The notes under the pieces were generated by a model. The model had not been told where the DNA came from. It did no database searches and worked only from the letters and a program-made list of their open reading frames with translations. The translations under genes were made by a program, and so were the position numbers. A stretch of DNA of 64,000 nt. Origin: Candidatus Sungiibacteriota bacterium. Its GTDB lineage: Bacteria; Patescibacteriota; Minisyncoccia; Sungbacterales; HO2-52-23. Below, piece after piece: positions 15,059-58,774 of this stretch. The stretch is from NCBI GenBank assembly GCA_016206285.1, contig JACQRW010000007.1, positions 16,455 through 80,454 of the forward strand. The letters run 5' to 3'. Each line of letters begins with the position of its first letter. Positions within the stretch are counted from its first letter, which is position 1.

Positions 15059-15071
15059 GCGCGATAGACCG

Positions 15072-16739: not shown

Positions 16740-17315
16740 CTAGTCGAGGAGATAGTCCAAGGCAAGCGTAAGCGCCACCCATGACATAGCAATTTCCAAA
16801 TGCATGTCATCAAGACGACCTCGCAGAAGATTTCTGGCGCGTTTCGGATCGATAAGCACGACTTCGCTCTCCGGCATCTTCACCAGATACGCCCCCGTAG
16901 CAAGAAAAAAGTAATGTTCGCCACCGTCAATTTTGTCGGAAAAGTCAACCATTGGATCCTCCCGAAGTATGATCCAGTTTGTCGCTCCATAACCGGTTTC
17001 CTCAGTAAATTCACGTTTGGCGGCATCTAAAGGTGTCTCATCTTTTTTCACTCCGCCGGTAGCTGCCGTGAGCATGCGCTTCATCTGACCATACTTTGGC
17101 TCGCGTACCAAGATAATGTTGCCCGCATTGGTATGACCAATGACAACAGAAAAAGACCTTCCTTGCCGGTCCCACAGAAATTGCGGTTCGCGAATTATTC
17201 CACCTGAAGTTTCCACTATACGGCGGGTAACTTTGAAAAATGGGTTATCGTAGGCGATTGATTCTGAAACAATTTTGCCGACTTCCGTAGTATCATTTGG
17301 TTGTCGTTGACTCAC
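16740..17315 (-). CDS. Nudix hydrolase
   Basis: Nudix box GGVKKDETPLDAAKREFTEETGY. Confidence 0.75.
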   Translation of the reverse strand: MSQRQPNDTTEVGKIVSESIAYDNPFFKVTRRIVETSGGIIREPQFLWDRQGRSFSVVIGHTNAGNIILVREPKYGQMKRMLTAATGGVKKDETPLDAAKREFTEETGYGATNWIILREDPMVDFSDKIDGGEHYFFLATGAYLVKMPESEVVLIDPKRARNLLRGRLDDMHLEIAMSWVALTLALDYLLD

Positions 17316-17395: not shown

Positions 17396-18385
17396 ATGTC
17401 AAAAATACTTATCACCGGCGGAACCGGATTTATCGGATATCATCTGGCAAAACGCTTGGTCGGCCAGGAGCACGAAGTCGTGCTCGCGGATAATTTTTTC
17501 CGCAGCGAGCGCGATGCCGATCTTATAGCGCTTCTTGAACAGCCCAATATCAAACTCATCGAAGCAGATCTGACTGATCCGGCATTATGGGACGCGCTTG
17601 GCACCGGATATGATTATGTGTACCACCTGGTGGGCATTAACGGGACAAAGCTCTTTTACGAAATCCCCCACGAAGTGCTGCGCATCGGAGTCACTACTAC
17701 GCTCAATGCGCTTGACTGGTTCAGAACCAAAAACAATCAGCCAAACGCGAAGATACTTTATACCTCCTCCAACGAGGCATATGCCGGAGCGCTTGATGCA
17801 TTCGGCAAGCTCTTGATCCCCACGCCGGAAAACGTACCGCTGGTGATCGCCGACCCCTACAACCCGCGGTGGTCGTACGCCGGACAAAAACTCATCGGAG
17901 AGCTTTTGTTCATCCACTATGCAAAAGCATACGGTTTTCGCATGTCCATAGTACGACCGCATAATTTTTACGGCCCGCGCGAGGGATATTTGCACGTGAT
18001 ACCGGAGATTATCGAGCGCATCCACGAGCAGCCCGATCCGTTTCCCATTTTTGGAGCCGATACTACGCGCTCTTTCTGCTATATTGATGACGCAGTGGAA
18101 GCGATCCAGACCGTCATGGAATCGGACAAGACGGATAACGGCACCTACCATATAGGCACGCACGAGGAGACGCTGATTAAAAACCTGATCGAAAATCTGT
18201 TCACGCTCATGAACTGGCATCCGAAAGAATTGGATATTCAAAACTCGCCCGAAGGCAGCGTAAAGCGCCGCCTGGCTGACGTCTCCAAAATCAAGGCCGA
18301 CATTGGATGGGAAGCAAAAATCGGATTGGAAGAAGGTCTGCGAAAAACTATTGAATGGTATACGGCGCATCCGCATAAAAAATAG
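17396..18385 (+). CDS. NAD-dependent epimerase/dehydratase (extended SDR), tandem paralog A
   Basis: ILITGGTGFIGYHL Rossmann motif and catalytic SYAGQK (YxxxK). Confidence 0.8.
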   Translation: MSKILITGGTGFIGYHLAKRLVGQEHEVVLADNFFRSERDADLIALLEQPNIKLIEADLTDPALWDALGTGYDYVYHLVGINGTKLFYEIPHEVLRIGVTTTLNALDWFRTKNNQPNAKILYTSSNEAYAGALDAFGKLLIPTPENVPLVIADPYNPRWSYAGQKLIGELLFIHYAKAYGFRMSIVRPHNFYGPREGYLHVIPEIIERIHEQPDPFPIFGADTTRSFCYIDDAVEAIQTVMESDKTDNGTYHIGTHEETLIKNLIENLFTLMNWHPKELDIQNSPEGSVKRRLADVSKIKADIGWEAKIGLEEGLRKTIEWYTAHPHKK

Positions 18386-19399
18386 ATGTCAAAAATACTT
18401 ATAACCGGCGGGGCCGGTTTTGTCGGATACCATCTGGCAAAACGGCTGGCGGATCAGGAACACGAAATAGTACTCGTTGATAATTTTTCGCGCAACGGAC
18501 GCGATGCCGATTTACTGACCCTGCTTCAACGGCCGAACACCAAGCTTATCGAAGGAGACCTTACCGATCCGGCATCATATGAGAAATTTGGCACCGGATA
18601 TGATTATGTATACCACCTCGCAGGCATCAACGGATTCCGGCAGTTCATGGACATGCCGCATGAAGTGCTGCGAGTCGGCGCTGCCACGGCTTTAAATATC
18701 CTTGACTGGTTCCGGACAAAAAACAATCCGCCGGCAGGCGGACAAGGCGCAAAAATTCTTTTTACCTCAAGCAACGAAGTATTCACCGGAGCACACGAGG
18801 CATTTGGTGCACTGCCCGTTCCCACGCCGGAAAATGTGCCATTGGTGATCGCCGACCCCTACAACCCGCGGTGGTCGTATGCCGGTTCAAAGATCATCAG
18901 CGAATTGTTGTTCATCCACTATGCCAAAGTGTATAACCTGCGCATGGTGATTGTGCGGCTCCACAATCTTTACGGCCCCGGTGCCGGATATGATGCCATG
19001 ATCCCAAAATTCATTGGACGCACTCATAATCGCCTTGACCCGTTCCCCATGTTCGGTCCGGACGATCTCCGCGCATCATGCTATATCGCAGACGCGGTCG
19101 AGGCTATGCAGACAGCCATCGAATCTTCCGCCACTGACGGACAAACATACCATATCGGCGACTCCCGCGAGGCCACGATAAAAACCATTTTGGAAACCAT
19201 GTTTGAGATCATGCAGTGGCATCCGAAAGAATTTGACATCAAACCGTCTCCGAATGGTCCGCCAACTGGCGGATCAACCCGAGATATACTCGACGTCTCC
19301 AAAATCAAGACCGACATTGGATGGGAAGCAAAAACCTCGCTTGAGCAGGGATTACGAAAAACCATCGAGTGGTACCTGGCGCATCCGGCCCAATCCTAA
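18386..19399 (+). CDS. NAD-dependent epimerase/dehydratase (extended SDR), tandem paralog B
   Basis: ILITGGAGFVGYHL and SYAGSK; about 60-65% identical to paralog A over the full length. Confidence 0.8.
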   Translation: MSKILITGGAGFVGYHLAKRLADQEHEIVLVDNFSRNGRDADLLTLLQRPNTKLIEGDLTDPASYEKFGTGYDYVYHLAGINGFRQFMDMPHEVLRVGAATALNILDWFRTKNNPPAGGQGAKILFTSSNEVFTGAHEAFGALPVPTPENVPLVIADPYNPRWSYAGSKIISELLFIHYAKVYNLRMVIVRLHNLYGPGAGYDAMIPKFIGRTHNRLDPFPMFGPDDLRASCYIADAVEAMQTAIESSATDGQTYHIGDSREATIKTILETMFEIMQWHPKEFDIKPSPNGPPTGGSTRDILDVSKIKTDIGWEAKTSLEQGLRKTIEWYLAHPAQS

Positions 19400-19596: not shown

Positions 19597-20847
19597 TCAG
19601 AAAATCTCCGGCTTGGGAAGCGGCATGATGAATTTGCCTTTGTAGCCGGCGGCGCGAAGTTTATCCATGAGCTCGTGGCCAATGTGCCAGGAAAGCATGA
19701 GTGCGAATTCGGGCTGATCCTCGAAGAGTTGTTTTTCATCAAGCACCGGAATATGCGTGCCGGGAGTGAACATGCCGATCTTTGGCGAGCCGGCGCGCTC
19801 TACGGCGTAGTCGAGCAATTGCTCGTCTATCTTGGCAAATCCGAGCAGCGTATTCGATCGACACGGGCTGCCGATACCCACAATGCGGCCGCCCGTCTGC
19901 TTGCACTCGATCAGCACGCGCAGCAATTCGTGTTTTGCGCCAACCGCATCAGCCGCAAACTCGCGGAGTTTCTTAATATCGTATAGCCCGGCTTCTTTTT
20001 CTTTTTTCATGAGTTCTTTGACCCGTACAGATGGAGCGTGCTTTCCCTTCATGGCATACACGCGAATGGAACCTCCGGCAGCGGTAATGCGCTCCGCATC
20101 CACAATACTCATGCCATACTGGCTAAAAAGATATTGCAAAGGTTTCAATCCATAAAACCGCAAGTGCTCGTGATACACCGTATCAAACTCAAGCTTTTCG
20201 ATAATGTCCATCAGGTATTGCGATTCGGAAACAAACACGCCGTCTTTATCCAAAACGGTTTTGATGCTTGCCATAAGCTCCGGCATGTTGATGATATGGG
20301 CAAACACATTAGTCGCGGTCACAAAACGCGCCTTGCCGTATTTTTTGACAACTGCGCGTGCAGTTTTCAAATCAAGAAACGCCTGAATCGTCGGGATCTT
20401 GTTTTTGTTCGCCACCTTTGCCGCGTCAGTCGGCTCAATGCCCAGCACCCGCAGCCCCCTTTCTTTGAATTGCGCGAGCAACGAGCCGTCGTTGGAGCCG
20501 ATGTCTATAATCAGATCTTTGGGCTTGAAATGGTATTGCTCATCCATAGTCTCGGCAAGCTGGCGGAAATTGCGGATAAGCATGTTGGTCATGCCGGTGC
20601 GGTACGGATAGTTTTTCGGAAACACGATCTCCGGATCAATGATATAGTCCACCTGGGTCAGCCCGCACTTGGTGCAAAATTGCAGATTGAGCGGATAGGT
20701 CATCTCATGCACTAATCTGTCAGTAAGATACTCCTGCGGAATGGGCTGATGCCCCAAAGAGAGCACCGGCTGCAATTTCGTATTCCCGCACACCTGGCAT
20801 TTGATAACCGGCCCGATATGGCGCGATGTGGTTTTTTTTGTAGGCAT
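19597..20847 (-). CDS. NDP-hexose C-methyltransferase family (zinc-ribbon + class I SAM MTase + C-methyltransferase C-terminal domain; TylCIII/TcaB9-like)
   Basis: N-terminal CQVCGNTKL...HQPI zinc ribbon, IIDIGSNDGSLL SAM motif, about 416 aa, typical of sugar C3/C5-methyltransferases. Confidence 0.75.
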   Translation of the reverse strand: MPTKKTTSRHIGPVIKCQVCGNTKLQPVLSLGHQPIPQEYLTDRLVHEMTYPLNLQFCTKCGLTQVDYIIDPEIVFPKNYPYRTGMTNMLIRNFRQLAETMDEQYHFKPKDLIIDIGSNDGSLLAQFKERGLRVLGIEPTDAAKVANKNKIPTIQAFLDLKTARAVVKKYGKARFVTATNVFAHIINMPELMASIKTVLDKDGVFVSESQYLMDIIEKLEFDTVYHEHLRFYGLKPLQYLFSQYGMSIVDAERITAAGGSIRVYAMKGKHAPSVRVKELMKKEKEAGLYDIKKLREFAADAVGAKHELLRVLIECKQTGGRIVGIGSPCRSNTLLGFAKIDEQLLDYAVERAGSPKIGMFTPGTHIPVLDEKQLFEDQPEFALMLSWHIGHELMDKLRAAGYKGKFIMPLPKPEIF

Positions 20848-21823: not shown

Positions 21824-22005
21824 CCATTGCCCAACCTGCCGAATATGGCACTATATTACCACGTCCCGATACAAAAGTCAAATCTAATCTGGGTGGAAGG
21901 AAAGACAAAAACCGCAGAGCGGATCATGTGGTTTGGCTACAGTCAAATCAAAAACTTTGACGAGACCAAAAGAAAACGCTACACTTGCAGCATAATAAAG
22001 CCCCT

Positions 22006-22914
22006 ATGCCCCCCACCCTTTCCTACATCACCGCAACTAAAAATAAGCTGCCCTATTTTAAACAAGGAATAGAGAGATTGATCGCCCACAAAAAACCGGA
22101 CGAGGAGATTTTGGTTGCTGACGGGGCAAGCACGGACGGAACTCCGGAGTATCTGGCGGAGCTGAAAGCTGCGGGAAAGATTGACTGGTTCGTGTCTGAA
22201 CCGGACTTTGCGGAGTCGCATGCCTTGAACAAGCTTTTCCTGGCGGCACGGGGAGAAGTGATCAAGATCATCAATGACGATGATGCATATTATTTTCCGA
22301 CGATCGAGGCATGCAAGAAATTCATGCTGGAGCATCCGGAGATAGACTTTATGGGTACGGAAGGCGGGTCGTTCAAACATGAAACGCCGGAAAGGCAGGT
22401 GATCCGAAAAGTCGCTGGGTATGAGCAAAATTTCCGGAAGTGGAAGAGCGATCATACGCCGTTCGAGTTTGCGGTATTGGGGCTTATGTTTCGCCGGTCT
22501 TCCCTGCCCGTTTTGGGATTTTGGGATCTCTCGTTCAAAAATGCCGATGCGGAGTATACGTTTCGTTCCACCGCAGGCCCGGCAAAGCTTGCGTGGTGCC
22601 TGAATCCATCGTTTGTATTCATCCGCACCAAAGAAGGCGTGACCATGAACAATCTGAAGCGGATGCGTGAAGAGGCGCTGCGCTTGCGCAAATTTTATCT
22701 AGGCGAAAACCCGCCATCTCCTCTCTTGATCGCGGTCAAACGCCCGTTTCGGAACATGCGCGAGATGATGAGCGCACGAAAAAGCGAAGTGCTGAGAAAA
22801 GCGCCGGGTTCCGCATCTGATACACGCGGAGAATCATGGGCTGAACTGTATCAAGAAGGAGAGCAGTGGCTGATCGAGCAAAACCGCGGAAAAGAATTTG
22901 AATTTCTTTCGTAG
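22006..22914 (+). CDS. Glycosyltransferase family 2-like, tandem paralog A
   Basis: LSYITATKNKLPYFKQGIERLIAHKKPDEEILVADGASTDGT GT2 N-terminal signature. Start taken at the ATG for MPPTLSY, by alignment with paralog B. Confidence 0.65.
   Translation: MPPTLSYITATKNKLPYFKQGIERLIAHKKPDEEILVADGASTDGTPEYLAELKAAGKIDWFVSEPDFAESHALNKLFLAARGEVIKIINDDDAYYFPTIEACKKFMLEHPEIDFMGTEGGSFKHETPERQVIRKVAGYEQNFRKWKSDHTPFEFAVLGLMFRRSSLPVLGFWDLSFKNADAEYTFRSTAGPAKLAWCLNPSFVFIRTKEGVTMNNLKRMREEALRLRKFYLGENPPSPLLIAVKRPFRNMREMMSARKSEVLRKAPGSASDTRGESWAELYQEGEQWLIEQNRGKEFEFLS
22081..22180. repeat. About 100-nt tract nearly identical (4 mismatches) to 22990..23089 in the tandem GT2 paralog
   Basis: Direct comparison: atcgcccacaaaaaaccgga..ggagattttggttgc.gacggggcaagcacggacggaactccggagtatctggcggagctgaaagc.gcgggaaa.at. 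Confidence 0.8.
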
Positions 22915-22917
22915 AAT

Positions 22918-23823
22918 ATGACAACCCTTTCCTATATCATCGCCACGCGCAACAAGCTCCCCTATCTCAAAGCGGGGCTTGAAAAACTCATCGCCCACAA
23001 AAAACCGGATGAGGAGATTTTGGTTGCGGACGGGGCAAGCACGGACGGAACTCCGGAGTATCTGGCGGAGCTGAAAGCAGCGGGAAAAATCGAGTATTTT
23101 GTATCGGAGAAAGATTTCGGGCTTGCGCATGCGCTGAATAAATTGGTGCTGGTTTCAAACGGTACGCTTCTGAAATATCTGACCGATGACGACGCCTTTG
23201 ATTATGGAGTAATTCAAAAATGCAGAACGTTCATGCTTGAGCACCCGGAAGTTGATCTCGTGAACACCGAGGGCGGATCGCTCAACGATCCATCCCGCAT
23301 GGCTGCATACCAAGACCCGCTGCAGGTAGTGCGGGCGCTGAACTATGAAGAGCCGTACAAACAATGGCAACAAGACCACACGCCTTTTTATTTTTGCGAT
23401 CTGGGTATCATATTCCGGCGCTCGTCGCTGCCGGTGACGGGTTTTTGGAATGTGCTGTTCCCCGGACCCGACATTGAACTCTCCCTCCGGACAAGCAAAG
23501 GACGGGTAAATATCGCATGGTACACCGGCTACTCGTACGTCAATATCAGCAACCCCCAGAGCGTGAGCGTGGTATTCATGCAAAAAACGAAAAGACTGAC
23601 GGAGCGGCTGGACAAGCTCTATTTTGATAAAAATCCGGACTCTCTCATTGTGCGGAAGCTGAAAGTGCTGCGCAATAAACTGCGGAGCGGCTTGATGCCT
23701 AAAACCTCCGGCACATCAATACCCTTTCAGGAACAATGGCCGGAGCTTATCAAGACATCGGAAAAATGGCTTGAGCTTAAAAATCTGCAAAAAGAACCTG
23801 AGTTCCTCGTAAAGCCCCTATGA
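22918..23823 (+). CDS. Glycosyltransferase family 2-like, tandem paralog B
   Basis: LSYIIATRNKLPYLKAGLEKLIAHKKPDEEILVADGASTDGT; shares a ~100-nt near-identical tract with paralog A. Confidence 0.65.
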   Translation: MTTLSYIIATRNKLPYLKAGLEKLIAHKKPDEEILVADGASTDGTPEYLAELKAAGKIEYFVSEKDFGLAHALNKLVLVSNGTLLKYLTDDDAFDYGVIQKCRTFMLEHPEVDLVNTEGGSLNDPSRMAAYQDPLQVVRALNYEEPYKQWQQDHTPFYFCDLGIIFRRSSLPVTGFWNVLFPGPDIELSLRTSKGRVNIAWYTGYSYVNISNPQSVSVVFMQKTKRLTERLDKLYFDKNPDSLIVRKLKVLRNKLRSGLMPKTSGTSIPFQEQWPELIKTSEKWLELKNLQKEPEFLVKPL

Positions 23824-24893
23824 ATCTTCTTGAGTATCAGGGCAAAGAACTGTTGAAAAAATATGCGATCCCGGTACCGGATTCTTTTTTGATGTATCCG
23901 GAAAGCTTTCTTCCCGATCTTTCGATTCCATTTTTTCTCAAATCCCAGGTTGCGGCCGGAGACAGAAATAAATATGGGGGCATCGTGCAGGTCGAATCGG
24001 CGGCTGATTTTATATCCGCAAAAGAAAAACTTTTCAAAACTCCGATTGCGGGTCTCAAACCGGACGTACTTTTGGCCGAAAAGAAAATCGGGTATACGGG
24101 GGAGCTCTATCTCTCATTCAGCTATGATACCCGCACGCGTGCTCCCGCTCTGTCGCTCGCGCGCCAAGGAGGCAGCGGCGTAGCCGAGGCATGCGTGTTT
24201 CCGATTGACATTGTTACGGGACTTCAAGATTTTTTTATCCGAGATGCCCTGCTTTCTGCAGGGCTTCCGCTCCATGCGGAATTGAAAGGGATCATACAAA
24301 AACTCTGGCGCCTGTTCGAATCAGAACACGCTCTTGTTGCCGAGATCAATCCCCTTTTTGCCACAGGAGAAACGGGCTACATTGCGGGTGATGCAAAAAT
24401 AATCCTGGACGACTACCATGCAAATCCCGAATACCGTCCGTTTATTGATCTTCCGGGCGACATCGCCATTATCGCATCGGGCGGGGGCGCGTCCATGCTC
24501 AATATTGACGCGCTTATGCATGCCGGAGGCAAACCCGCCAATTATGCGGAATACTCCGGCAATCCGCCGGCAAGCGTGGTGGAAGAACTTACAGTCCGCA
24601 TTTTGACCAAACCGGGCTTAAAAGGCTGCTGGGTGATCGGCGGCACGGCAAATTTTACCGATATCTATGAAACCATGCTCGGCTTTGTCGCCGGACTCCG
24701 CAAGATCAGCCCCAAGCCGGATTTTCCCATTGTGATCCGCCGCGACGGCCCGCGACGTGAAGAGGCATTTCAAATGCTTCAGGAAGTTGCTTCGCGCGAG
24801 GGATATACCTTCTCGCTTTTCGGCCCTGAAGTTCCTATGGCATACACGGCAGAATATCTTGTGAAAAAAATATATGAGCATTCTGATAGATAA
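23820..24893 (+). CDS. Succinyl-CoA-synthetase beta-subunit-like ATP-grasp protein (citryl-CoA synthetase/ACL small-subunit-like)
   Basis: MNLLEYQGKELLKKYAIPVP N-terminus typical of SucC/ACL ATP-grasp; about 357 aa. Overlaps the next gene (coupled). Confidence 0.7.
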   Translation: MNLLEYQGKELLKKYAIPVPDSFLMYPESFLPDLSIPFFLKSQVAAGDRNKYGGIVQVESAADFISAKEKLFKTPIAGLKPDVLLAEKKIGYTGELYLSFSYDTRTRAPALSLARQGGSGVAEACVFPIDIVTGLQDFFIRDALLSAGLPLHAELKGIIQKLWRLFESEHALVAEINPLFATGETGYIAGDAKIILDDYHANPEYRPFIDLPGDIAIIASGGGASMLNIDALMHAGGKPANYAEYSGNPPASVVEELTVRILTKPGLKGCWVIGGTANFTDIYETMLGFVAGLRKISPKPDFPIVIRRDGPRREEAFQMLQEVASREGYTFSLFGPEVPMAYTAEYLVKKIYEHSDR

Positions 24894-25785
24894 AAATACC
24901 AAGGTGCTGGTGCAGGGCATTACCGGAAAAGAGGGGGGACGCGCGGCTGAAGATATGCTCGCCTACGGTACGGCTGTCATAGGGGGCACGTCTCCGGGAA
25001 AAGGCGGCGCGCGCGAAAAAAATAATCTGCCTGTTTTCAACAGCGTGGCTGAGGCAATGGCCGCATACCCGGATATCGGCGCGTCCATGATCGCGGTTCC
25101 GGCTCCGTTTGTGTTCGATGCGGCTATGGAGGCGATCGCATCGCGAATCCCCCTTATCGTGATCTTGTCGGAAAAAGTCCCGGTCAGCCACGTTGCCAAG
25201 ATAATCGCGCACGCAAAATTGAATGGCGTGCGGATCGTGGGGCCAAGCTCCATCGGGATCATCTCGCCGGGACGCGCAAAGATCGGCAGCGTGGGCGCGG
25301 CGGGCATCGCTGACCGGATATTTTCACCGGGCACGGTGGGCGTGATCTCAAAAAGCGGAGGCATGACGGCAGAACTGTCGCGCATACTTACCGATGCGGG
25401 CATTGGCCAGAGCACGGCAATCGGCATAGGCGGAGATCTGCTGATCGGCACCGATTTTGTTGACGCCGCACTTTTATTCGAGCAAGATAAAGACACCAAA
25501 GCTTTGGCTATCTTCGGAGAAATCGGCGGCACCTATGAAGAACAGCTTGCGGACGCGATCCGGCAAAAGAAGATCACCAAACCGGTTGTCGCGCTTATCG
25601 CCGGGCAATTTTCCGAACAGCTTGCTACAGGAGCAGTATTGGGCCATGCCGGAGCGATCGTGATGAAAGGAGCGGGGTCGTTTACGTCCAAAATCAAAGC
25701 GCTGCGCGAGGCCGGAGCGATCGTAGCCGAGACTCCCGAAGATATTCCGGTACACCTTCAGCAACTTTTAGGTAAAACCATATGA
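24874..25785 (+). CDS. Succinyl-CoA-synthetase alpha-subunit-like CoA-binding/ligase protein with phosphohistidine loop
   Basis: VLVQGITGKEGG CoA-binding motif and GAVLGHAGAIV (GHAGA catalytic His loop). Confidence 0.8.
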   Translation: MSILIDKNTKVLVQGITGKEGGRAAEDMLAYGTAVIGGTSPGKGGAREKNNLPVFNSVAEAMAAYPDIGASMIAVPAPFVFDAAMEAIASRIPLIVILSEKVPVSHVAKIIAHAKLNGVRIVGPSSIGIISPGRAKIGSVGAAGIADRIFSPGTVGVISKSGGMTAELSRILTDAGIGQSTAIGIGGDLLIGTDFVDAALLFEQDKDTKALAIFGEIGGTYEEQLADAIRQKKITKPVVALIAGQFSEQLATGAVLGHAGAIVMKGAGSFTSKIKALREAGAIVAETPEDIPVHLQQLLGKTI

Positions 25786-26486
25786 AAATAAAAACAGAGA
25801 TCAGCGCTTCGCAAGATCACGAACATAATATCCGCGGGAAACCGCTTGGCGATCTTATCCGGAATCATTCGTTTGTCGAAACTCTTTTTTTGCTTTTTCG
25901 CGGCAACATGCCAAACAAAGCTGAAGAGGATCTCCTGAATGCCCTGCTGGTCAGCGCAGCAGAACATGATATTGAGGCACCTTCTCTCTTCGTACCCAGG
26001 ATAAGCACATCTGTCGGCAATCCGCCGCAGGCCGCACTCGCCGCTGGCATCTTGTCCATCGGTCCCAGCCATGGAGGCGCGGGATGGGAGGCGGCCCGGC
26101 TCCTTGCAGGCCCGGAAACGCCGCAAGAGATCGTAACAAGATTTTTAAAAGAACATGCGCCGATACCCGGTTACGGGCACAGGATATATAAAGATGCAGA
26201 CCCGAGAGTTTCCGTCATCGAAGAAAAGATCCGCGTATCCGGCGTTTCGGGGACGCATTTTGACCGCGCCCGGGCGATTGAAAAAGAACTTGCAACGCAA
26301 AAAGGAAAACATATTCCCTTGAACATAGACGGCGCTTTTGCCGCATGCGTTCTTGACCTTGGTTTTGCGCCGGAAACCGCCCTGGAACTTTTCATTCTTG
26401 CCCGCATCGCAGGCATGTCGGCGCATATCAACGAAGAACGGCAACAGCATAATCCGTACTATCGGCTTGAAAATGGTTCATTATGA
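25782..26486 (+). CDS. Citrate-synthase-fold protein (citryl-CoA-lyase / ATP-citrate-lyase C-terminal-domain-like)
   Basis: PGYGHRIYKDADPRV matches the citrate-synthase active-site signature. 234 aa, the size of Ccl-type citryl-CoA lyases. Confidence 0.7.
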   Translation: MKIKTEISASQDHEHNIRGKPLGDLIRNHSFVETLFLLFRGNMPNKAEEDLLNALLVSAAEHDIEAPSLFVPRISTSVGNPPQAALAAGILSIGPSHGGAGWEAARLLAGPETPQEIVTRFLKEHAPIPGYGHRIYKDADPRVSVIEEKIRVSGVSGTHFDRARAIEKELATQKGKHIPLNIDGAFAACVLDLGFAPETALELFILARIAGMSAHINEERQQHNPYYRLENGSL

Positions 26487-27199
26487 AAAAGATTATCCGA
26501 AAATTCATGCCGGAGCTCGTTCTTTTTTTGCGCGTGCAGTATCTCAAAGCAAAGCAAAACAGGCATGAGCTGCAAAAATACGCAAGCCTTCAGGCTGCAG
26601 ACTCTGTGTCCGTATCCGGAACATGCGCATTCGGCGATCACACCAAGGCCGGAGAACGCACCCGCCTGTTTGACGTTTCGCTCGGGAACCATTCGTATTT
26701 TATGGAGGATTGCTTTGCCAGAAATTGCACGATCGGCGCGTACTGTTCCATTGCTCCTCATGCGGTCATCGGTCTGGGGCAGCACCCTGTGAACTTCGTC
26801 TCAACCCATCCTGCATTTTATTTCGATACAAAACAAAAAATGTTTACCTACGCGGACGAAAAATACGTCCAAGAATTTCCGCAAAGCGCGCATATCATGA
26901 TCGGCAATGATGTATGGATCGGACAGGGAGCGCTGGTAAGAGACGGCGTTGCCATAGGCAACGGCGCGATTATCGGCGCCGGAGCCGTAGTCGTAAAAGA
27001 TGTCGAGCCGTACAGTATTGTGGGCGGGGTTCCGGCGCGTCTGATCCGCTATCGTTTTGAACCCGAAGAAATAGCATTTTTGCAAAAATTCAAATGGTGG
27101 GAAAAAAACGAAGCATGGCTGAAAGAGAATTGGAAGTACTTTTCGGACATCAAAAAATTGATGGCGAAATACGCAAAAACCGGCATGCCTGATGCCTAA
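26483..27199 (+). CDS. Hexapeptide-repeat (left-handed beta-helix) acetyltransferase, xenobiotic/Vat/CatB-like
   Basis: Repeated [LIV]GxxxxIG hexapeptides (IGNDVWIGQGALV, IGNGAIIGAGAVV); ATGA overlap with the upstream gene. Confidence 0.8.
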   Translation: MKKIIRKFMPELVLFLRVQYLKAKQNRHELQKYASLQAADSVSVSGTCAFGDHTKAGERTRLFDVSLGNHSYFMEDCFARNCTIGAYCSIAPHAVIGLGQHPVNFVSTHPAFYFDTKQKMFTYADEKYVQEFPQSAHIMIGNDVWIGQGALVRDGVAIGNGAIIGAGAVVVKDVEPYSIVGGVPARLIRYRFEPEEIAFLQKFKWWEKNEAWLKENWKYFSDIKKLMAKYAKTGMPDA

Positions 27200-27247
27200 C
27201 GCCCGTTTGATAAAAAAGACGATCCATACTATACTGGGAAACAGAAT

Positions 27248-28047: not shown

Positions 28048-28824
28048 ATGCATATGAGCATCCGCGACCGGCTTAAGCGCATTACTCTTTTAAAAATTTT
28101 GGTTGTTATCTGGCGGGTATTCCGCAATAGGCACGGTTTTTTTGCCAAGATACGGGCGCTTGGTTCTTTCTTTGAATCATGGTCGGCATTCCGGCATATG
28201 CCCCGCAACAGTGCTTTCTTATTGAAAACGCATGACCTCTATCCCCGTTTGTTCGATAATACGCATGGAACCCCTATTGATCCGGTATATTTTTATCAAG
28301 ATACATGGTGCGCCGGAAAAATTTTCAGCCAGAAGCCGGAGCATCACTATGACATTGCGTCGGAAGCTGAATTTATCGGTATCATTTCGCAATTTGTGCC
28401 AACCACTATGGTGGACATCCGGCCGTTGCCGGTTACGCTGCCCAATCTTTCATTTATGCAGGGAGACACCACGCGGCTTCCATTTGACGACAGCAGCATC
28501 GCGTCATTGAGTTCCATTTGCGTGATCGAACACATCGGTCTTGGACGGTACGGAGATCCGCTTGATCCCTTCGGCTCTGAAAAAGCTCTTGCAGAAATGA
28601 TCCGCGTACTGGCGCCGGGCGGATCGCTTTATATTTCGGTGCCGATTGATGCGGAAAATAAGGTTTACTTCAACGCGCATCGCGCATTTTCCCCAAACTA
28701 CATTTTCAAACTCTGCATGCCTCTTACGCTCATTGAAGAGCGCTATGTATACGGCAACCGCATGGAACAAACATATGACCCCAAAAAGGGATTCGGCACC
28801 GGCCTTTATCATTTTAAAAAATGA
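28048..28824 (+). CDS. SAM-dependent methyltransferase-like protein (DUF268/Methyltransf_11-like)
   Basis: MVDIRPLPV..LSFMQGD..LPFDDSSI..ICVIEHIG..LAPGGSLYISVP pattern. Confidence 0.5.
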   Translation: MHMSIRDRLKRITLLKILVVIWRVFRNRHGFFAKIRALGSFFESWSAFRHMPRNSAFLLKTHDLYPRLFDNTHGTPIDPVYFYQDTWCAGKIFSQKPEHHYDIASEAEFIGIISQFVPTTMVDIRPLPVTLPNLSFMQGDTTRLPFDDSSIASLSSICVIEHIGLGRYGDPLDPFGSEKALAEMIRVLAPGGSLYISVPIDAENKVYFNAHRAFSPNYIFKLCMPLTLIEERYVYGNRMEQTYDPKKGFGTGLYHFKK

Positions 28825-29576
28825 AAAAACGTATGCATATAAAGCTCTCCTCGCATCGTACCGTCAAATTCATTCTTTTTCAGCGCTCGCAATATTTGCT
28901 TTGGCGCCGCAATAAAACTATACAGCGATTTGCTCGCGCGTTGCCCAGACGGCTTGCGTTCAGCCTTGAGGCGCTGGCAAGCAACTTCAATGCAACCGTA
29001 TCTCTGGAGGCGCTATTTACGAGAAAAAGCGTAGAAAAACTTTTCAGTGAAGAGATGACGCTGGAATACAACCAAATGAAACCCTATCTGCCGGCGCACG
29101 CCCGCACGATTCTTGATATCGGAGCAGGCGTAGGCGGCATTGACATACTGCTTGGCAAGCACTATGAGCAGGACAAGCCTATGATCTATCTGCTCGATAA
29201 GACAGAAATGCCTGCCAAGGTGTATTATAGCTTGCGGGAAAAAGGATGTTTTTATAACTCGCTGGAGCTTGGCCGGGATATGCTGGTTGAAAACGGCATC
29301 AAACCCGAACAAATTTTTTTGCAAGAGGCAACCGATGACAACCGCATTATCTCCGACACGAAATTCGATCTGATTGTCTCCCTTATCTCATGGGGATTCC
29401 ACTATCCCATCGCAACTTACCTTGACCAGGTATATGACAAGCTGGCCGAAGGCGGGGCGGTGATCACGGATGTGCGGAGACACGGCAACGGCATTGAGCT
29501 GCTGCAAAAAAAGTTTCCGAAAACCAAGATTATTTTTGAAGCGCAAAAACATGTTCGCATCGTTGCGTGGAAATAA
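28821..29576 (+). CDS. Class I SAM-dependent methyltransferase, paralog A
   Basis: ILDIGAGVGGIDILL motif I; LAEGGAVI. Confidence 0.6.
   Translation: MKKRMHIKLSSHRTVKFILFQRSQYLLWRRNKTIQRFARALPRRLAFSLEALASNFNATVSLEALFTRKSVEKLFSEEMTLEYNQMKPYLPAHARTILDIGAGVGGIDILLGKHYEQDKPMIYLLDKTEMPAKVYYSLREKGCFYNSLELGRDMLVENGIKPEQIFLQEATDDNRIISDTKFDLIVSLISWGFHYPIATYLDQVYDKLAEGGAVITDVRRHGNGIELLQKKFPKTKIIFEAQKHVRIVAWK
29082..29212. repeat. 131-nt tract 100% identical to 30867..30997 in the methyltransferase paralog
   Basis: ccctatctgccggcgcacgcccgcacgattcttgatatcggagcaggcgtaggcggcattgacatactgcttggcaagcactatgagcaggacaagcctatgatctatctgctcgataagacagaaatgcc occurs in both copies. Confidence 0.85.
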
Positions 29577-30620: not shown

Positions 30621-30650
30621 TTGCCATGCAAGCCCTTTTTTAGTACACTT

Positions 30651-31355
30651 ATGACTATGATTATCCCGAATAAAGCAATTAAATACATACTATTCCAGCG
30701 GACGGAATATCTGCTCTCCATGAAAAGTCCGTTATTAAACCGTTTCGTGGTACGCGTACCATCGCGCATGTACAATCTGGCAGTTACACTGGAGGCTCTC
30801 CTGACCAAACCGCGGGTCAAGCGTCTGTTTCAAGAAGACATGGAGCGCGAGTATGCCATTTTGAAGCCCTATCTGCCGGCGCACGCCCGCACGATTCTTG
30901 ATATCGGAGCAGGCGTAGGCGGCATTGACATACTGCTTGGCAAGCACTATGAGCAGGACAAGCCTATGATCTATCTGCTCGATAAGACAGAAATGCCCAA
31001 AAAAGTCTACTACGGCCTGGAACAAAAGGGCTGTTATTACAACTCGCTTTCTTTGGCAAAAGATATGCTCGTTCAAAATGGCCTTACTGCCGGCCATATT
31101 ATCACTCAAGAAGCAGACAATGATTACCGAATCAATTTTGATGCAAAATTCGATCTGGTGATCTCGCTGATTTCATGGGGATTTCACTATCCTATTGCGA
31201 CCTATCTTGATCAGGTTTACGCGCTGCTGGCACCTGGCGGCATACTTATCCTTGACGTGCGCAAGGGCACAGAAGAAGAGATAATGAAAAAATTCGGTAA
31301 CGCAACAAAAATTTTTGAAGCGCGGAAATATTTCAGAGTCATGGCGCGAAAATAG
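30651..31355 (+). CDS. Class I SAM-dependent methyltransferase, paralog B
   Basis: ILDIGAGVGGIDILL; contains a 131-nt tract 100% identical to paralog A. Start taken at the first ATG (MTMIIP); the ORF-track start at 30621 is a TTG. Confidence 0.6.
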   Translation: MTMIIPNKAIKYILFQRTEYLLSMKSPLLNRFVVRVPSRMYNLAVTLEALLTKPRVKRLFQEDMEREYAILKPYLPAHARTILDIGAGVGGIDILLGKHYEQDKPMIYLLDKTEMPKKVYYGLEQKGCYYNSLSLAKDMLVQNGLTAGHIITQEADNDYRINFDAKFDLVISLISWGFHYPIATYLDQVYALLAPGGILILDVRKGTEEEIMKKFGNATKIFEARKYFRVMARK

Positions 31356-31380: not shown

Positions 31381-32544
31381 GTGCGGCTCATCTACCTCAC
31401 CTCAAAAAGTTATCCGGCAAGCACTGCAGACCATATCTATATCCTCCAGCTCGCGCGAGGTTTTTTTCACGTACTCAGAGAAGATTTTTTGCTCGTAGTG
31501 GCCGGCAACCGATCTGAACCGGTCCGATCAAGCCATCAAGACGGACAGACGTCTGATCACACAACTGCATCGGATGATTTCCGGAATCTGCCGGTATACA
31601 GAGTCGGCTGGCGCTATGGAAGATTCCGAACGATTTTCTATTTTTTTTGGCTTCCCTATTTTATTATTTCACATAAGCATGCCGGGCACAGCACTGTCTT
31701 TTTTTCAAACGATCCGAATCTGCTGCTGGTGCTTATCTTCTGGCGGATAGTCTTTTACTATCGCATCGTATCTGACTGGCATATGCTTTTTAACGACTGG
31801 CGGGACCGCTTCATCATGCAAAAAAGCGACCAGCTTATCACTACCTCGCAGAAATTGAAAAACGCGATGATACAAACCTCCGGCATCCGGGAAGAGACGA
31901 CCTGCGTTGCATACGGAGGCATTAATCTTGCGCTCTATCAACCTCTTGACCAAAGTGCGGCGCGCACATTACTGCGCCTCCCGCAAGATAAATATATTGT
32001 GGCATATATCGGTTTTTTTAAAACGCTTGGTATGGAAAAAGGAGTGGGTACTATGATCGAGGCTCTGCCGCTCCTGCCGGAGAATATTCTTATGCTTTTT
32101 GTCGGGGGTAGCGACCGCGAGATAACGGAATATCAGAAGTTTGCGGATGCACGGCATGTCGGCAACCGGTGCATATTTATAGGCAAGAAAAAACCAACGG
32201 AACTTCCGCCATATGAACAGGCGGCCGATCTCCTCTCCATCCCCTATCCGGATTTGCCGCATTTCAGGGATTACGGCTTCCCCATGAAAGTATACGAGTA
32301 CATGGCGAGCAGACGGCCGATTGTCTACTCAAAACTTGAGCTTGTCGAAGAAGTGATCGGCGACTGCGCATTTGGTTTTATCCCAGGCAGTATGCAGGAT
32401 TTTGCCCGGGCAGTGCAGGAAGCTGCTTCCCACCCGGATCAAGCAAAAGCATACGCAGAATCGGCGTATGCTAAAGTGCAGAATTATACATGGAATAGAA
32501 AGGCGGAGCAGATTGCGGACTTCATCACTTCTTCTTCCCGATGA
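31381..32544 (+). CDS. Glycosyltransferase family 4-like (GT-B)
   Basis: C-terminal FPMKVYEYMASRRPIV motif (EX7E-type). Confidence 0.7.
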   Translation: MRLIYLTSKSYPASTADHIYILQLARGFFHVLREDFLLVVAGNRSEPVRSSHQDGQTSDHTTASDDFRNLPVYRVGWRYGRFRTIFYFFWLPYFIISHKHAGHSTVFFSNDPNLLLVLIFWRIVFYYRIVSDWHMLFNDWRDRFIMQKSDQLITTSQKLKNAMIQTSGIREETTCVAYGGINLALYQPLDQSAARTLLRLPQDKYIVAYIGFFKTLGMEKGVGTMIEALPLLPENILMLFVGGSDREITEYQKFADARHVGNRCIFIGKKKPTELPPYEQAADLLSIPYPDLPHFRDYGFPMKVYEYMASRRPIVYSKLELVEEVIGDCAFGFIPGSMQDFARAVQEAASHPDQAKAYAESAYAKVQNYTWNRKAEQIADFITSSSR

Positions 32545-34162
32545 TATAGAGATGCGCCGCCACGGCATCGGCTCCGGGCATGCTCATGAACAGGAGGTCG
32601 AGGTACTTGAGGGGGCCGAGTACAAGCATGAAAACGTGCGCCAAAACAGGCGCTATTTTTTTTGATCCGAACGCGAAAATCACGCCAAGCCAGTATGCAA
32701 GAAACATAAGAAACGCGCTCCATGGTCCGGATCGCACGCCGCTCTCAATAATCTCAAGATCAGGAAAAAGCTGTTTGAGCCCGCTGACGGTCCAGCGGTT
32801 AAAATCGTCCGGAGAGGCGTGATACGGGTGCACAAACGGCGCACTCACATAGAGAAGACCGCCGGGTTTGAGCACGCGCGACATCTCGGCCGCAACTTTC
32901 ACCGGATCTGCTACATGCTCCAAGAGAGACTCGCTCACCACGCCGTCCGCCGTACCGGCAGGAAACGGAAGAGCCGAGGCATCGGCCACCACGTCAACCT
33001 GCGGAAACGGGTACACGTCAATGTTGATGAATTCCTCACCGAGCCGTTCGGGCCCGGATCCAACATCAAGAAGGATCGGGCCATCGGGAAGCATGGGAAG
33101 AATTTTTCGGGGACCGTTGCGTATCATAAGCACCGGACAAAAAAGATGCCAGATGCCATAATACAGTTTCGGAAATTGCTTGAGAAATGACTTGAGCCAA
33201 TTCACCCCGGATACATGCTCTTCGGTGTTTAATGCAAGCGCATCTTGGCTGATCAGCAAGGGTCTGCCTGCAGAATCAACGGCAAAACTACCGTGTTCGG
33301 CACAAACATAACCGGAGTCCCACGCCGATTGCGGAAGAAAATTCACAGATACGAGCATTGGTACGGGCGCGCCTGCATAAGGTACGGAAGATGAAGACTG
33401 TAACATCTTGCCGCAAAACGGACAACAAAGAAGCTTTGAGACATCTTTGGGAACATAGGCAATCGGTTTCCGGAGATATAAAAGCCGGTCTCCGGCCAAA
33501 GCAAGTACGGCATGAATTCCATCGCGATATGTTATCTTTTTGCCTTGAGCAACCGGCCGCGGATTGTGCGATATCGGCACCTCGCCGATAGACAATCCCC
33601 TGCGCGCGAGTGCCGCAGTAAAGAGCAACTCGGATTCGAAACCTCCGGCTCGGAAATCGCGTGCGGCCGATGCGGGAAAAAGTTTGTAGCACGTCCATGC
33701 ATCGGTCAGAGAAAGTCCGTACGACAGATTGAGAAGCCGGGTAATAGCCCATACGCCGGCACGGGGTATCAAGAAACCCTCGCGCTTTTTTTTACTCAAA
33801 TTGCGCGAACCGTAAATCACATTTCCCTTGCCTTCTTCAAGCCCCCGGATGAGACTTGGAATTTCGTTCGGATCATATTCAAGATCGGCATCCTGGATAA
33901 GCGCGTATTGCCCGGTCGCCTCTTGAAGCCCTTGGCGAACCGCTGAACCTTTTCCCCCATTCTTTTCCTGCAGGATCACCTTGATGTGGTCTTGGTATGC
34001 GGCCAAGATATCTCTGGTGCCATCGTGCGATCCGTCATCAACCACAATGATTTCTTTTTCCCATGATCCGGGCAATTGCACCTGCTCCACCCGGTGAAGC
34101 AGTTCGCGGATCGTTTCCCGCTCGTTGTAGCAGGGAATAATAATCGAAAGTTTTTTAGTCAT
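32525..34162 (-). CDS. Fusion protein: GT2 (Dpm1/polyprenyl-phosphate sugar synthase-like) + Trm112-like zinc ribbon + class I SAM methyltransferase + C-terminal TM helix
   Basis: LSIIIPCYNERETI...VVDDGSHDGT (GT2), CPFCGKML (zinc ribbon), LLDVGSGPERLG...LKPGGLLYVSAP (MTase), hydrophobic C-terminus. Start taken at the ATG for MTKKLSIII. Confidence 0.75.
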   Translation of the reverse strand: MTKKLSIIIPCYNERETIRELLHRVEQVQLPGSWEKEIIVVDDGSHDGTRDILAAYQDHIKVILQEKNGGKGSAVRQGLQEATGQYALIQDADLEYDPNEIPSLIRGLEEGKGNVIYGSRNLSKKKREGFLIPRAGVWAITRLLNLSYGLSLTDAWTCYKLFPASAARDFRAGGFESELLFTAALARRGLSIGEVPISHNPRPVAQGKKITYRDGIHAVLALAGDRLLYLRKPIAYVPKDVSKLLCCPFCGKMLQSSSSVPYAGAPVPMLVSVNFLPQSAWDSGYVCAEHGSFAVDSAGRPLLISQDALALNTEEHVSGVNWLKSFLKQFPKLYYGIWHLFCPVLMIRNGPRKILPMLPDGPILLDVGSGPERLGEEFINIDVYPFPQVDVVADASALPFPAGTADGVVSESLLEHVADPVKVAAEMSRVLKPGGLLYVSAPFVHPYHASPDDFNRWTVSGLKQLFPDLEIIESGVRSGPWSAFLMFLAYWLGVIFAFGSKKIAPVLAHVFMLVLGPLKYLDLLFMSMPGADAVAAHLYIIGKKK

Positions 34163-44659: not shown

Positions 44660-44675
44660 ATCGAAGACCCGGAGA

Positions 44676-58424: not shown

Positions 58425-58774
58425 CCTATTATTTTTCCTAAAATGTGCTGTTTGTTTATGACTCCGAAATTCCTGCTCGATGCCCCCCACAAAACCACAC
58501 TTCCAACATCATATCCGTCTACCCGCACACCAAGAACCTTTTTTACCAAAATCTGTCCGGAACCATTCGGGTTGCCAAACACGAGAAAATCCCCCGCTCC
58601 TATAGACCCCCATCCGCTTGCCCAATACAACTTGCCCTGCACTAAACTGGGCCAGCAGCTTTCACCGCTCACCCGCACCCGAAATAATATTTTCTTAATA
58701 GAGCTTATCGGTAATAGCCTGATATGCTTCATACCGTTCCGGAACTTTTTTTGCCTCGTAAAATATTTTTGCAA
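58409..58774 (-). CDS. Signal-peptidase-I (S26)-like small peptidase, candidate NiSOD maturation protease (SodX-like)
   Basis: SGESCWPSL (box B-like, Ser nucleophile), GDFLVF (box C), ILVKKVLGV (box D Lys) and GASSRNFG (box E-like). Lies immediately downstream of sodN. Start codon uncertain; overlaps sodN 3' end. Confidence 0.45.
   Translation of the reverse strand: MQKYFTRQKKFRNGMKHIRLLPISSIKKILFRVRVSGESCWPSLVQGKLYWASGWGSIGAGDFLVFGNPNGSGQILVKKVLGVRVDGYDVGSVVLWGASSRNFGVINKQHILGKIIGWNSR

Follow-up and report, generated by a model that had tools for sequence, protein, structure and literature searches.

A citryl-CoA synthetase/lyase-type gene module within a Sungiibacteriota glycan locus is a probable acetyl-CoA source for sugar acetylation

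Why should genes that resemble central-carbon enzymes be embedded in a glycan locus? This question is raised by a 64,000-nucleotide stretch of contig JACQRW010000007.1 from a Candidatus Sungiibacteriota bacterium, hereafter called the window, in which genes for a two-subunit ligase resembling succinyl-coenzyme A (CoA) synthetase (SCS) and for a short citrate-synthase-fold protein lie between glycosyltransferase genes and an acetyltransferase gene. An earlier reading of this DNA, made from its letters only, had proposed that the three genes encode a split ATP-citrate lyase (ACL), or citryl-CoA synthetase (CCS) plus citryl-CoA lyase (CCL), and the top PDB matches found here (6HXQ_B and 6HXP) agree with that proposal. 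We conclude that this module is probably a generator that converts citrate, ATP and CoA into acetyl-CoA and oxaloacetate and that feeds the acetylation of amino sugars and glycans. For this conclusion we infer the citrate substrate, the direction of cleavage, the hand-over of acetyl-CoA and the acceptor. The genes concerned are as follows.

21985 to 22914, + strand: GT2 glycosyltransferase (Glycos_transf_2, E 2e-15), with which the co-directional block opens
22918 to 23823, + strand: second GT2 glycosyltransferase (Glycos_transf_2, E 1.5e-18), whose stop codon overlaps the start of the ATP-grasp gene (ATGA)
23820 to 24893, + strand: CCS-like large (beta) subunit with ATP-grasp and ACL/CCS-type citrate-binding domains, compact, 357 amino acids (aa)
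24874 to 25785, + strand: CCS-like small (alpha) subunit with CoA-binding and ligase-CoA domains and GHAGA (His258), 303 aa
25782 to 26486, + strand: citryl-CoA lyase, a short citrate-synthase-fold protein with the triad His97/His133/Asp183, 234 aa
26483 to 27199, + strand: hexapeptide-repeat (LbH) acetyltransferase of the CatB/Vat type, 238 aa, with an alternative start at 26507

The sequence-only reading had placed four overlapping genes at 23820-27199, and all of its coordinates and overlaps were reproduced exactly when the open reading frames (ORFs) were checked and the junctions were read directly. The beta and alpha genes overlap by 20 nucleotides (24874/24893), and ATGA overlaps join the alpha gene to the lyase gene (25782/25785) and the lyase gene to the acetyltransferase gene (26483/26486). 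The three overlaps that it listed stand, and it had missed a further coupling upstream, where the stop codon of the second GT2 gene and the start codon of the beta subunit share the ATGA at 23820-23823. The first GT2 gene is separated from this second one, its paralogue with 48% identity, by 3 nucleotides. A public gene caller chose the acetyltransferase start at 26507, which yields a protein of 230 aa, and the overlapping ATGA start is kept in a relative whose lyase is 81% identical. Either start is possible, and with either one the gene begins no more than 21 nucleotides past the CCL stop codon.

Searches with Pfam and NCBIfam models bear out the original description of the four products as a SucC-like subunit, a SucD-like subunit with a GHAGA loop, a citrate-synthase-fold protein of 234 aa and a hexapeptide acetyltransferase, with E-values well outside what chance would give. 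Because the alpha subunit and the ATP-grasp half of the beta subunit are SCS-like, the substrate assignment depends on the C-terminal motifs of the beta subunit and on the co-inherited lyase. The beta subunit, which is 100% identical to HY617_01075, encoded on a 104,717-bp contig of a Candidatus Sungbacteria metagenome-assembled genome (MAG), matches ATP-grasp_2 (E 6e-20) and Citrate_bind (PF16114, E 3e-20) in Pfam, and there is no Pfam match to Ligase_CoA. Its best PDB match is 6HXQ_B, the CcsA protein of Hydrogenobacter thermophilus (148 bits), followed by SCS-beta (113 bits) and AclB (84 bits). When the C-terminal domain is searched alone, AclB and CcsA score equally (about 78 bits each) and SCS-beta is weaker (40 bits). 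The SucC model NF001913, with a cut-off of 370, matches residues 1-198 only, at 124.7 bits. An AlphaFold2 model of the subunit (pLDDT 88.9) retrieves 6HXQ_B as the top Foldseek match with SCS-beta nearly tied, so that the predicted fold confirms the architecture and does not settle the substrate.

Individual residues are more informative about the substrate. Residues G247, N278-F279-T280 and R308 of the beta subunit align with G309, N346-F347-T348 and R379 of human ACLY, of which G309, N346, T348 and R379 are said to contact citrate. The stretches that contain them, EYSG(NP), ANFT(D) and RR-GP, are kept in 73-76 of 76 family members. In the alignment, ANFTD takes the place of the GGI(T/V)R loop of SCS, and the SCS-beta loop differs and is three residues shorter. 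The ATP-grasp motifs K41, E95, E175-x-N177-P178 and D191-x-K193 are invariant among 24 aligned sequences.

The lyase matches Citrate_synt in Pfam (E 3e-37) over the C-terminal part of the profile only (positions 162-355 of 357) and contains the motif GYGHRIYKDADPR. Its four best NCBIfam matches are all CCL models, with NF004869 leading at 199 bits against a cut-off of 212, and the citrate synthase models reach at most 91 bits against cut-offs above 330. Among PDB chains the best match is 6HXP, the CCL of Hydrogenobacter thermophilus (E 9e-45, 156 bits, residues 4-228), followed by citrate and methylcitrate synthases at about 80 bits and the ACL lyase module at about 74 bits. Residues H97 (xHGGA), H133 (GxGH) and D183 (NxD), which align with the catalytic triad of citrate synthase, are present in 65 of 65 homologues, as are D140 and R142 of a DPR motif. 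NCBI already names exactly this 234-aa protein citryl-CoA lyase.

These results also bear on the possibility that the module acts on a different carboxylate, such as 2-methylcitrate or another hydroxy-tricarboxylate, to yield another acyl-CoA such as propionyl-CoA, or that the ligase alone supplies an unusual acyl-CoA as donor for the acylation of glycans. Such an idea draws on the fact that all of the proteins fall below equivalog cut-offs and are only 29-45% identical to characterised enzymes, and on the range of citrate-synthase-fold enzymes, which includes 2-methylcitrate synthases that are among the weaker matches to the lyase. However, the residues aligned with the ACLY citrate loop are invariant, and the lyase fits CCL far better than it fits methylcitrate synthases (199 versus 91 bits with NCBIfam models and 156 versus 82 bits with PDB chains). 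Moreover, the GlmU acetyltransferase domains that neighbour the module in relatives are specific for acetyl-CoA, and the orthologue from a DPANN archaeon sits with genes for aconitase and isocitrate dehydrogenase (IDH). We therefore consider another carboxylate to be very unlikely. The original proposal had left open whether citrate or some other di- or tricarboxylate is processed, and the invariance of both the ACLY citrate-loop residues and the citrate synthase triad favours its citrate-to-acetyl-CoA option.

The alpha subunit carries CoA_binding, Ligase_CoA and Succ_CoA_lig domains in Pfam and scores 287 bits with TIGR01019 against a cut-off of 353. Its PDB matches are led by the SCS-alpha of Aeropyrum pernix (2YV2, 274 bits), ahead of CcsB (181 bits) and AclA (143 bits). 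The phosphohistidine loop G257-H258-A259-G260 is present in 75 of 75 alpha homologues. The alpha chain stops at residue 303, and the lyase has an independent ORF and start in each of the 63 complete modules. The catalytic His of the GHAGA loop and the His/His/Asp residues of the citrate-synthase-fold protein, which the original reading had singled out for checking, are intact in the alignments, and no catalytic feature of the three predicted enzymes appears to be degraded. Judged by these matches, the module is a CCS/CCL-type organisation in a compact and rather SCS-like version.

Might the module nevertheless be an ordinary SCS accompanied by a fragment of citrate synthase? In JGI pipelines, its homologues do bear the names succinyl-CoA synthetase beta subunit and citrate synthase, and SCS-alpha is the closest match of the alpha subunit. 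However, the beta subunit has a C-terminal domain of the Citrate_bind type with ANFTD, and its SucC score (124 bits) is far from the cut-off of 370. The lyase is no fragment, since it is a full-length member of the CCL family that aligns with 6HXP over residues 4-228 and measures 226-282 aa across 65 genomes, and the three genes are co-inherited. We reject this explanation as extremely improbable. Housekeeping SCS with citrate synthase fragments, or the loss of catalytic residues, had been put forward as outcomes that would undo the original proposal, and neither was found. Use of citryl-CoA itself as an acyl donor was also considered and is rejected on account of the intact lyase that is always co-encoded.

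The fourth gene of the overlapping set encodes the presumed consumer of acetyl-CoA. Its product matches Hexapep in Pfam and, among NCBIfam models, TIGR03308 (161 bits, below the cut-off), CatB (117 bits, cut-off 350) and Vat (115 bits, cut-off 300). The leading PDB match is the CatB structure 6MFK (108 bits), followed by Vat and ApmA, with the catalytic-His loop aligned, and there is an N-terminal extension of about 80 aa. The protein fits the LbH superfamily and the xenobiotic acetyltransferase subfamily without being an equivalog of the resistance enzymes. Characterised enzymes of the xenobiotic acetyltransferase branch use acetyl-CoA and mostly acetylate hydroxyl groups. Its location in a glycan operon makes a sugar acceptor likelier than an antibiotic, and we regard this as a reasonable inference.

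The proposed series of reactions would begin with the phosphorylation of His258 on the GHAGA loop of the alpha subunit by ATP. The phosphoryl group would then activate citrate in the ACL-type pocket of the beta subunit, and attack by CoA would give citryl-CoA. The free lyase would split this intermediate into acetyl-CoA and oxaloacetate by means of its His/His/Asp triad. Co-encoded transferases of the GlmU, GNAT or LbH type would consume the acetyl-CoA, and in the window the CatB/Vat-type enzyme would acetylate a sugar of the glycan made by the locus, perhaps by the O-acetylation that is typical for its family. Within the Patescibacteria, the role of the module would accordingly be the acetylation of amino sugars and surface glycans, not the reductive tricarboxylic acid (TCA) cycle or lipid synthesis. 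In most relatives it is part of an operon for UDP-N-acetylglucosamine (UDP-GlcNAc) formation that comprises GlmS, the module, GNAT or YvcK, and GlmU. As a rule, members of the Patescibacteria have neither a full TCA cycle nor phospholipid synthesis, but they do make peptidoglycan (PMC9530719).

The surroundings in the window fit a role in glycan formation, and domain annotation agrees with the original description of a setting among glycosyltransferases and methyltransferases. A single large glycan locus extends from about position 1 to 44,700. Its genes encode a Wzt-type ABC ATPase, a rhamnosyl O-methyltransferase, three epimerase/dehydratases, an NDP-hexose C-methyltransferase, an acetolactate-synthase-like thiamine pyrophosphate (TPP) enzyme, a class I/II aminotransferase, a NUDIX protein, a UDP-glucose-dehydrogenase-like protein, an NTP-transferase, glycosyltransferases of the GT2, GT4, GT11 and PMT_2 types, and at least five methyltransferases. 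The same annotation reveals no TCA or other central-carbon gene in the 64-kb window.

A more demanding question is whether the association with acetylation is a peculiarity of this one locus. To place it among relatives, one genome per GTDB species was scanned, which gave 80 loci, or 81 with the window (cited below by L numbers where needed). All but one of the 80 are from Patescibacteria, and the exception is a DPANN archaeon. Among Parcubacteria the module is found in Sung-, Wildermuth-, Andersen-, Yanofsky-, Kaiser-, Nomura-, Colwell- and Adlerbacteria, and among Microgenomates it is found, for example, in Daviesbacteria. Some assembly labels are unreliable, as with the binchicken MAGs that are listed as uncultured Candidatus Saccharibacteria or Gammaproteobacteria. 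Genes were called as simple longest ORFs and acyltransferases were found with ad hoc hidden Markov models, and the counts given here are lower bounds that may contain errors. A total of 780 neighbouring proteins were clustered and the cluster representatives were annotated.

The order of ATP-grasp, SucD-like and CCL genes is kept in 63 of the 81 loci, and the remainder are mostly truncated contigs together with a few loci in which one module gene was undetected. Median gaps are -4 nucleotides between the two ligase genes and +3 nucleotides between the SucD-like gene and the CCL gene. Among the commonest neighbours is a bona fide GlmS (803 bits), which mostly lies directly upstream on the same strand. 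The others in this group are an archaeal-type bifunctional GlmU (sugar-1-phosphate nucleotidylyltransferase/acetyltransferase, 254-270 bits), the UDP-GlcNAc-binding regulator YvcK (278 bits, above its cut-off), small GNAT proteins whose genes begin 0-10 nucleotides past the lyase gene, DegT aminotransferases and epimerase/dehydratases. The GNAT proteins encoded 3' of the lyase in relatives give weak and mixed matches only (GNA1 at 23 bits, RimI-like below the cut-off, and diamine acetyltransferases). A GlmU acetyltransferase domain also occurs on its own: in L084 it is of bacterial type (246 bits, profile positions 238-441) and its gene overlaps the module start, and in L015 it is of archaeal type and lies directly 3' of the lyase gene.

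In 49 loci the module is complete and flanked on each side by 3 kb or more of sequence, and for these only GNAT and LbH proteins were counted as acyltransferases. DltB-like MBOAT neighbours had been counted at first and were later excluded, because they do not use acetyl-CoA. A GNAT or LbH acyltransferase is found within 100 nucleotides in 16 of the 49 loci, within 1.5 kb in 30 (28 on the same strand) and within 6 kb in 34. Such genes make up 15% of all genes within 1 kb of the module (32/217) versus 1.6% at 3-6 kb (5/305), an enrichment (odds ratio 10.4, p 7.5e-9) calculated by a Fisher test that ignores shared ancestry. The neighbouring acyltransferases belong to several unrelated folds, and acetyl-CoA is the donor common to all of them.

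In a tree of beta subunits, the association with acyltransferase or hexosamine genes appears in at least four arrangements in different clades. In the first, found in Microgenomates, a GlmU-like gene lies directly upstream of the module. The second and third are GlmS-module-GNAT, with or without YvcK at the end, and GlmS-module-YvcK-GlmU. The fourth is a scattered group of glycan loci in which DegT, epimerase, and LbH or GNAT genes accompany the module. By comparison, LeuRS, TrpRS, Sua5 and SHMT are neighbours within single clades only. One of the glycan-locus forms, from another member of the Sungbacteria (L022), contains genes for GT4, an RmlD-like protein, GDP-mannose 4,6-dehydratase (Gmd), DegT, Wzx, the module and an LbH acetyltransferase, a layout that is that of a pathway for an N-acetylated 6-deoxy-amino sugar. 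Another (L005) has NeuB, aminotransferases, the module, a GNAT protein, an epimerase and Wzy. The relative with a lyase 81% identical to that of the window (L087) has the module, a hexapeptide acetyltransferase (79% identity) and a DUF268 methyltransferase as in the window. The recurrence of operon linkage across the 81 loci strongly supports the idea, already advanced in the sequence-only reading, that the module would be an acyl-CoA generator that feeds acyltransferases.

Several insertions within the module were observed among the relatives. These are a group II intron-type reverse transcriptase (L076, 3946-4866), a PhoU-like protein with a PHO4 phosphate transporter between the SucD-like and CCL genes (L079, 10076-11854), a NUDIX hydrolase (L018, 10016-10492), and ORFs of 220-350 aa that have no Pfam match (L008, 9998-11050; L020, 9183-9962; L049, 10105-11440). 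In about ten loci from Daviesbacteria and other Microgenomates, a conserved metal transporter of the Nramp family is located shortly upstream of the GlmU-like gene and the module (e.g. L077, 5113-6480). A DltB-like MBOAT gene adjoins the module in a few Parcubacteria (L024, 6487-7977; in L052 and L060 immediately downstream of the CCL gene), and this linkage falls outside the idea of acetyl-CoA supply.

The beta subunit from the window nests in the tree among sequences whose genes have GlmS directly upstream, and for this reason the window module looks like one that was relocated from a UDP-GlcNAc operon into a glycan locus. In its closest clade the module occupies a housekeeping block, LeuRS-GlmS-module-YvcK-GlmU-Sua5-SHMT-FolD. 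This has consequences for how unusual the arrangement is. The sequence-only reading had called a glycan-embedded acyl donor system unusual, which is true with respect to textbook metabolism and does not hold within the lineage, where an operon with GlmS and GlmU for UDP-GlcNAc is the commonest context.

How closely is the module tied to the acetyltransferase next to it? There is one beta-subunit copy from this MAG among the homology matches, and so the module probably serves the whole cell. One possibility is that it cleaves citrate as a cell-wide source of acetyl-CoA that is uncoupled from the adjacent acetyltransferase and from this particular glycan. A single copy must serve every need for acetyl-CoA, the closest clade carries the module in a housekeeping block, and a similar glycan locus (L086) has no adjacent acyltransferase. 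On the other hand, ATGA overlaps couple the GT2 gene, the module and the acetyltransferase gene and are conserved in the 81%-identical relative, and glycan contexts with DegT, epimerase, LbH or GNAT genes recur independently. We consider an uncoupled source unlikely, although it differs only in degree from a supply for amino-sugar and glycan acetylation. The unit had originally been described as dedicated; its linkage to users of acetyl-CoA is upheld, and its exclusive tie to the adjacent acetyltransferase is weakened by the single copy and by L086.

Supply of acetyl-CoA for sugar acetylation remains the function that we favour, and a number of observations weigh against it. All four proteins are below their NCBIfam equivalog cut-offs. 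The alpha subunit is nearer to true SCS-alpha than to CcsB (274 versus 181 bits), and the ATP-grasp half of the beta subunit is as near to SCS-beta as to CcsA. There is no GNAT or LbH acyltransferase within 6 kb in 15 of the 49 complete loci, and 7 of the 49 have neither an amino-sugar gene nor an acyltransferase. The shared ancestry of the loci, noted above, also bears on the enrichment. The locus L086, from a 63%-identical relative, closely resembles the glycan locus of the window, but no acyltransferase follows its module within 10 kb; upstream, the sequence of this locus is cut off. Neither a citrate transporter nor an oxaloacetate-consuming enzyme was seen near the module. In addition, the ACL or CCS/CCL reaction is near equilibrium, and its direction is not fixed by sequence. 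Finally, conversion of pyruvate to acetate has been reported for some Parcubacteria (PMC9530719), which implies other routes to acetyl-CoA.

The matter of direction deserves separate consideration, since the three proteins might run in reverse as an ATP-conserving citrate synthase. In this case acetyl-CoA and oxaloacetate would form citryl-CoA, which would give citrate and CoA with phosphorylation of ADP. Operating in this way, the module would conserve energy or provide a biosynthetic route into citrate and 2-oxoglutarate, and its proximity to acetyltransferases would be incidental. Reversal is compatible with a reaction near equilibrium, and the one archaeal locus is suggestive in this respect. 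In this DPANN member (Candidatus Iainarchaeum, L073, 3142-12114), genes for phosphoenolpyruvate (PEP) carboxylase, aconitase and IDH precede the module, the IDH stop codon overlaps the start of the module, and malic enzyme is encoded on the opposite strand. This locus ties the module family to citrate and oxaloacetate metabolism and may be a compact gene cluster for citrate and 2-oxoglutarate, with the module standing in for citrate synthase. A layout in which the module follows PEP carboxylase, aconitase and IDH reads as an oxidative branch to 2-oxoglutarate, which is plausible for the DPANN locus. However, the neighbours in Patescibacteria are consumers of acetyl-CoA and hexosamine genes, not aconitase, IDH or enzymes that form oxaloacetate, there are no citrate-using genes downstream in the window, and Patescibacteria are without a full TCA cycle (PMC9530719). 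For the bacterial modules we therefore regard the reverse direction as quite unlikely, and cleavage of citrate remains the preferred direction.

The borders of the transcription unit that contains the module can be outlined tentatively from two promoter-like sequences.

21957 to 21985, + strand: sigma-70-like promoter match upstream of the first GT2 gene (TTGACG-17-TACACT, 9/12), tentatively the possible start of a six-gene transcription unit
27207 to 27235, + strand: best promoter-like match of the region, in the 48-nucleotide gap after the acetyltransferase gene (TTGATA-17-TATACT, 10/12), tentatively the start of a separate methyltransferase unit

The 19 promoter-like sites of the region do not exceed the number in shuffled sequences (13.1 +/- 3.5), and because promoter and terminator counts are no higher than in shuffles, these borders are only suggestive. 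There is also a bidirectional terminator-like hairpin at 32638-32653, where a gene for a 565-aa fusion of GT2 with a C-terminal class I methyltransferase domain (32525-34222, - strand) converges on the + strand block. Neither a tRNA nor an Rfam match was found in the window by the respective scans.

The glycan locus has other features of its own. Three sets of paralogues point to recent local duplication: tandem epimerase/dehydratases at 17396-19399 (65% aa identity), the tandem GT2 genes at 21985-23823 (48% identity), and two methyltransferases 1 kb apart at 28821-29576 and 30621-31355 (59% aa identity, and 80% nucleotide identity over 357 nucleotides). The TPP enzyme, aminotransferase, NUDIX protein and C-methyltransferase (11972-13813, 13838-15223, 16740-17315 and 19597-20847, all on the - strand) form a set hinting at a branched-chain or otherwise unusual sugar. 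A similar TPP enzyme gene overlaps the start of the ATP-grasp subunit gene in one relative (L034, 6196-8004), with epimerase and NUDIX genes downstream. Two possible surface or attachment proteins are encoded where the glycan locus ends: one of 1239 aa (45519-49238, - strand), whose sole Pfam match is a peptidoglycan-binding domain, and one of 499 aa with PKD/LTD domains (43247-44746, - strand).

The remainder of the window is devoted to housekeeping functions, including ClpB, HtrA, SufS/SufBD and a nickel superoxide dismutase. The last of these (58695-59309, - strand, Sod_Ni E 1e-43), in a genome of the candidate phyla radiation (CPR), bears on the reported oxygen tolerance of this group. Beside the HtrA-like protease there is a GlcNAc de-N-acetylase of the PIG-L family (56180-56911, - strand), an enzyme that would free acetate from N-acetyl sugars and thus perform the reverse of acetylation.

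What would this module mean for the organisms that carry it? Citrate cleavage, whether by ACL or by CCS/CCL, is a signature step of the reductive TCA cycle in prokaryotes and a source of cytosolic acetyl-CoA in eukaryotes. The data presented here point to citrate as an under-recognised source of acetyl groups for the cell envelope in relatives of the Sungbacteria. If our interpretation is correct, the source of acetyl groups for peptidoglycan and surface glycans would be explained in ultra-small bacteria that lack the TCA cycle and lipid synthesis, and the glycan encoded in the window would be predicted to be acetylated. Citrate would then be a probable nutrient from the host or the community, and one to try in cultivation. 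A widespread mis-annotation would also be corrected, in which the labels hypothetical protein, succinyl-CoA synthetase and citrate synthase mimic fragments of the TCA cycle in CPR genomes.

A broader proposal can be offered only tentatively. It holds both that CCS/CCL is the main or only route to acetyl-CoA in much of the Patescibacteria and some DPANN archaea, chiefly for the acetylation of hexosamines in peptidoglycan and surface glycans, and that this clade is an early intermediate on the way from SCS and citrate synthase to CCS/CCL and ACL. The second part is suggested by the combination of an SCS-like alpha subunit and ATP-grasp half, an ACL-like citrate domain and a free lyase. If the first part were true, external or host-supplied citrate would be the obligatory acetyl donor for the envelope of a symbiont, a metabolic dependency that could guide cultivation.

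It remains to compare the module with known systems. Its nearest counterparts are CcsA/CcsB and Ccl of Hydrogenobacter thermophilus, a member of the Aquificae (6HXQ, 6HXP). Both systems consist of three separate polypeptides, CcsA and Ccl are the best PDB matches of the beta subunit and the lyase, and the citrate-loop motif and the catalytic triad are kept. The two systems are only about 29-45% identical, and they differ in size, with a beta subunit of 357 aa here versus 429 aa there and an alpha subunit of 303 aa versus 353 aa. They differ also in setting, which is the reductive TCA cycle of an autotroph in Hydrogenobacter and a hexosamine or glycan context in ultra-small bacteria without a TCA cycle here. 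More generally, the reductive TCA role known from Aquificae and Leptospirillum is not matched by the hexosamine, glycan and acetyltransferase neighbours of this module, and only the DPANN locus has aconitase and IDH.

ACL, in the form of AclA/AclB or ACLY, shares with the module its predicted overall chemistry, the PF16114 citrate-binding domain and the GHAGA loop. In contrast, the CSH lyase module of ACL is fused to the alpha subunit and forms a tetrameric core, whereas the lyase is encoded here by a separate gene, and ACL chains score below CCS/CCL chains against the window proteins. Eukaryotic ACLY supplies cytosolic acetyl-CoA for acetylation, including that of the hexosamine pathway, and the module would, if our interpretation is correct, be a prokaryotic parallel to hexosamine synthesis fed by ACLY. 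SucCD, from the same superfamily, shares the two-subunit architecture of the ligase and has a very similar alpha subunit (274 bits to 2YV2). The module is unlike SucCD in the citrate-type C-terminal domain of its beta subunit, in that both subunits are under the SucC and SucD cut-offs, and in that the ligase genes are always followed by a CCL gene and lack a TCA context. The acetyltransferase resembles CatB/Vat and LbH sugar O-acetyltransferases, which use acetyl-CoA, in its LbH core and aligned catalytic-His region, and differs from CatB/Vat in scoring far below equivalog cut-offs, in its N-terminal extension of about 80 aa and in its location in a glycan operon.

Within the CPR, a two-subunit archaeal-like ACL has been described for a Gracilibacterium, with external citrate as the predicted source of its acetyl-CoA and oxaloacetate (Sieber et al. 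2019, PMC6851277). That system resembles the module in its predicted use of citrate, but it has two subunits and was described as rarely detected in CPR, whereas the module of the window has three genes, occurs widely among Parcubacteria and Microgenomates and is associated with genes for sugar acetylation. Enrichment of aclAB has been reported in Saccharimonadia (PMC12577380), and CPR and DPANN sequences mis-annotated as SCS or citrate synthase have been found to group with CCS/CCL (bioRxiv 10.1101/2022.10.25.513756). Public annotations also include the names citryl-CoA lyase and ATP citrate lyase citrate-binding domain-containing protein. In the library searched, we found no paper that links such a module to GlmS, GlmU, YvcK, GNAT proteins or glycan acetylation, or that names citrate as an acetyl source for envelope sugars, which does not prove that none exists. 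In light of these comparisons, we rate the module as known chemistry in a new physiological role and with new genomic wiring.

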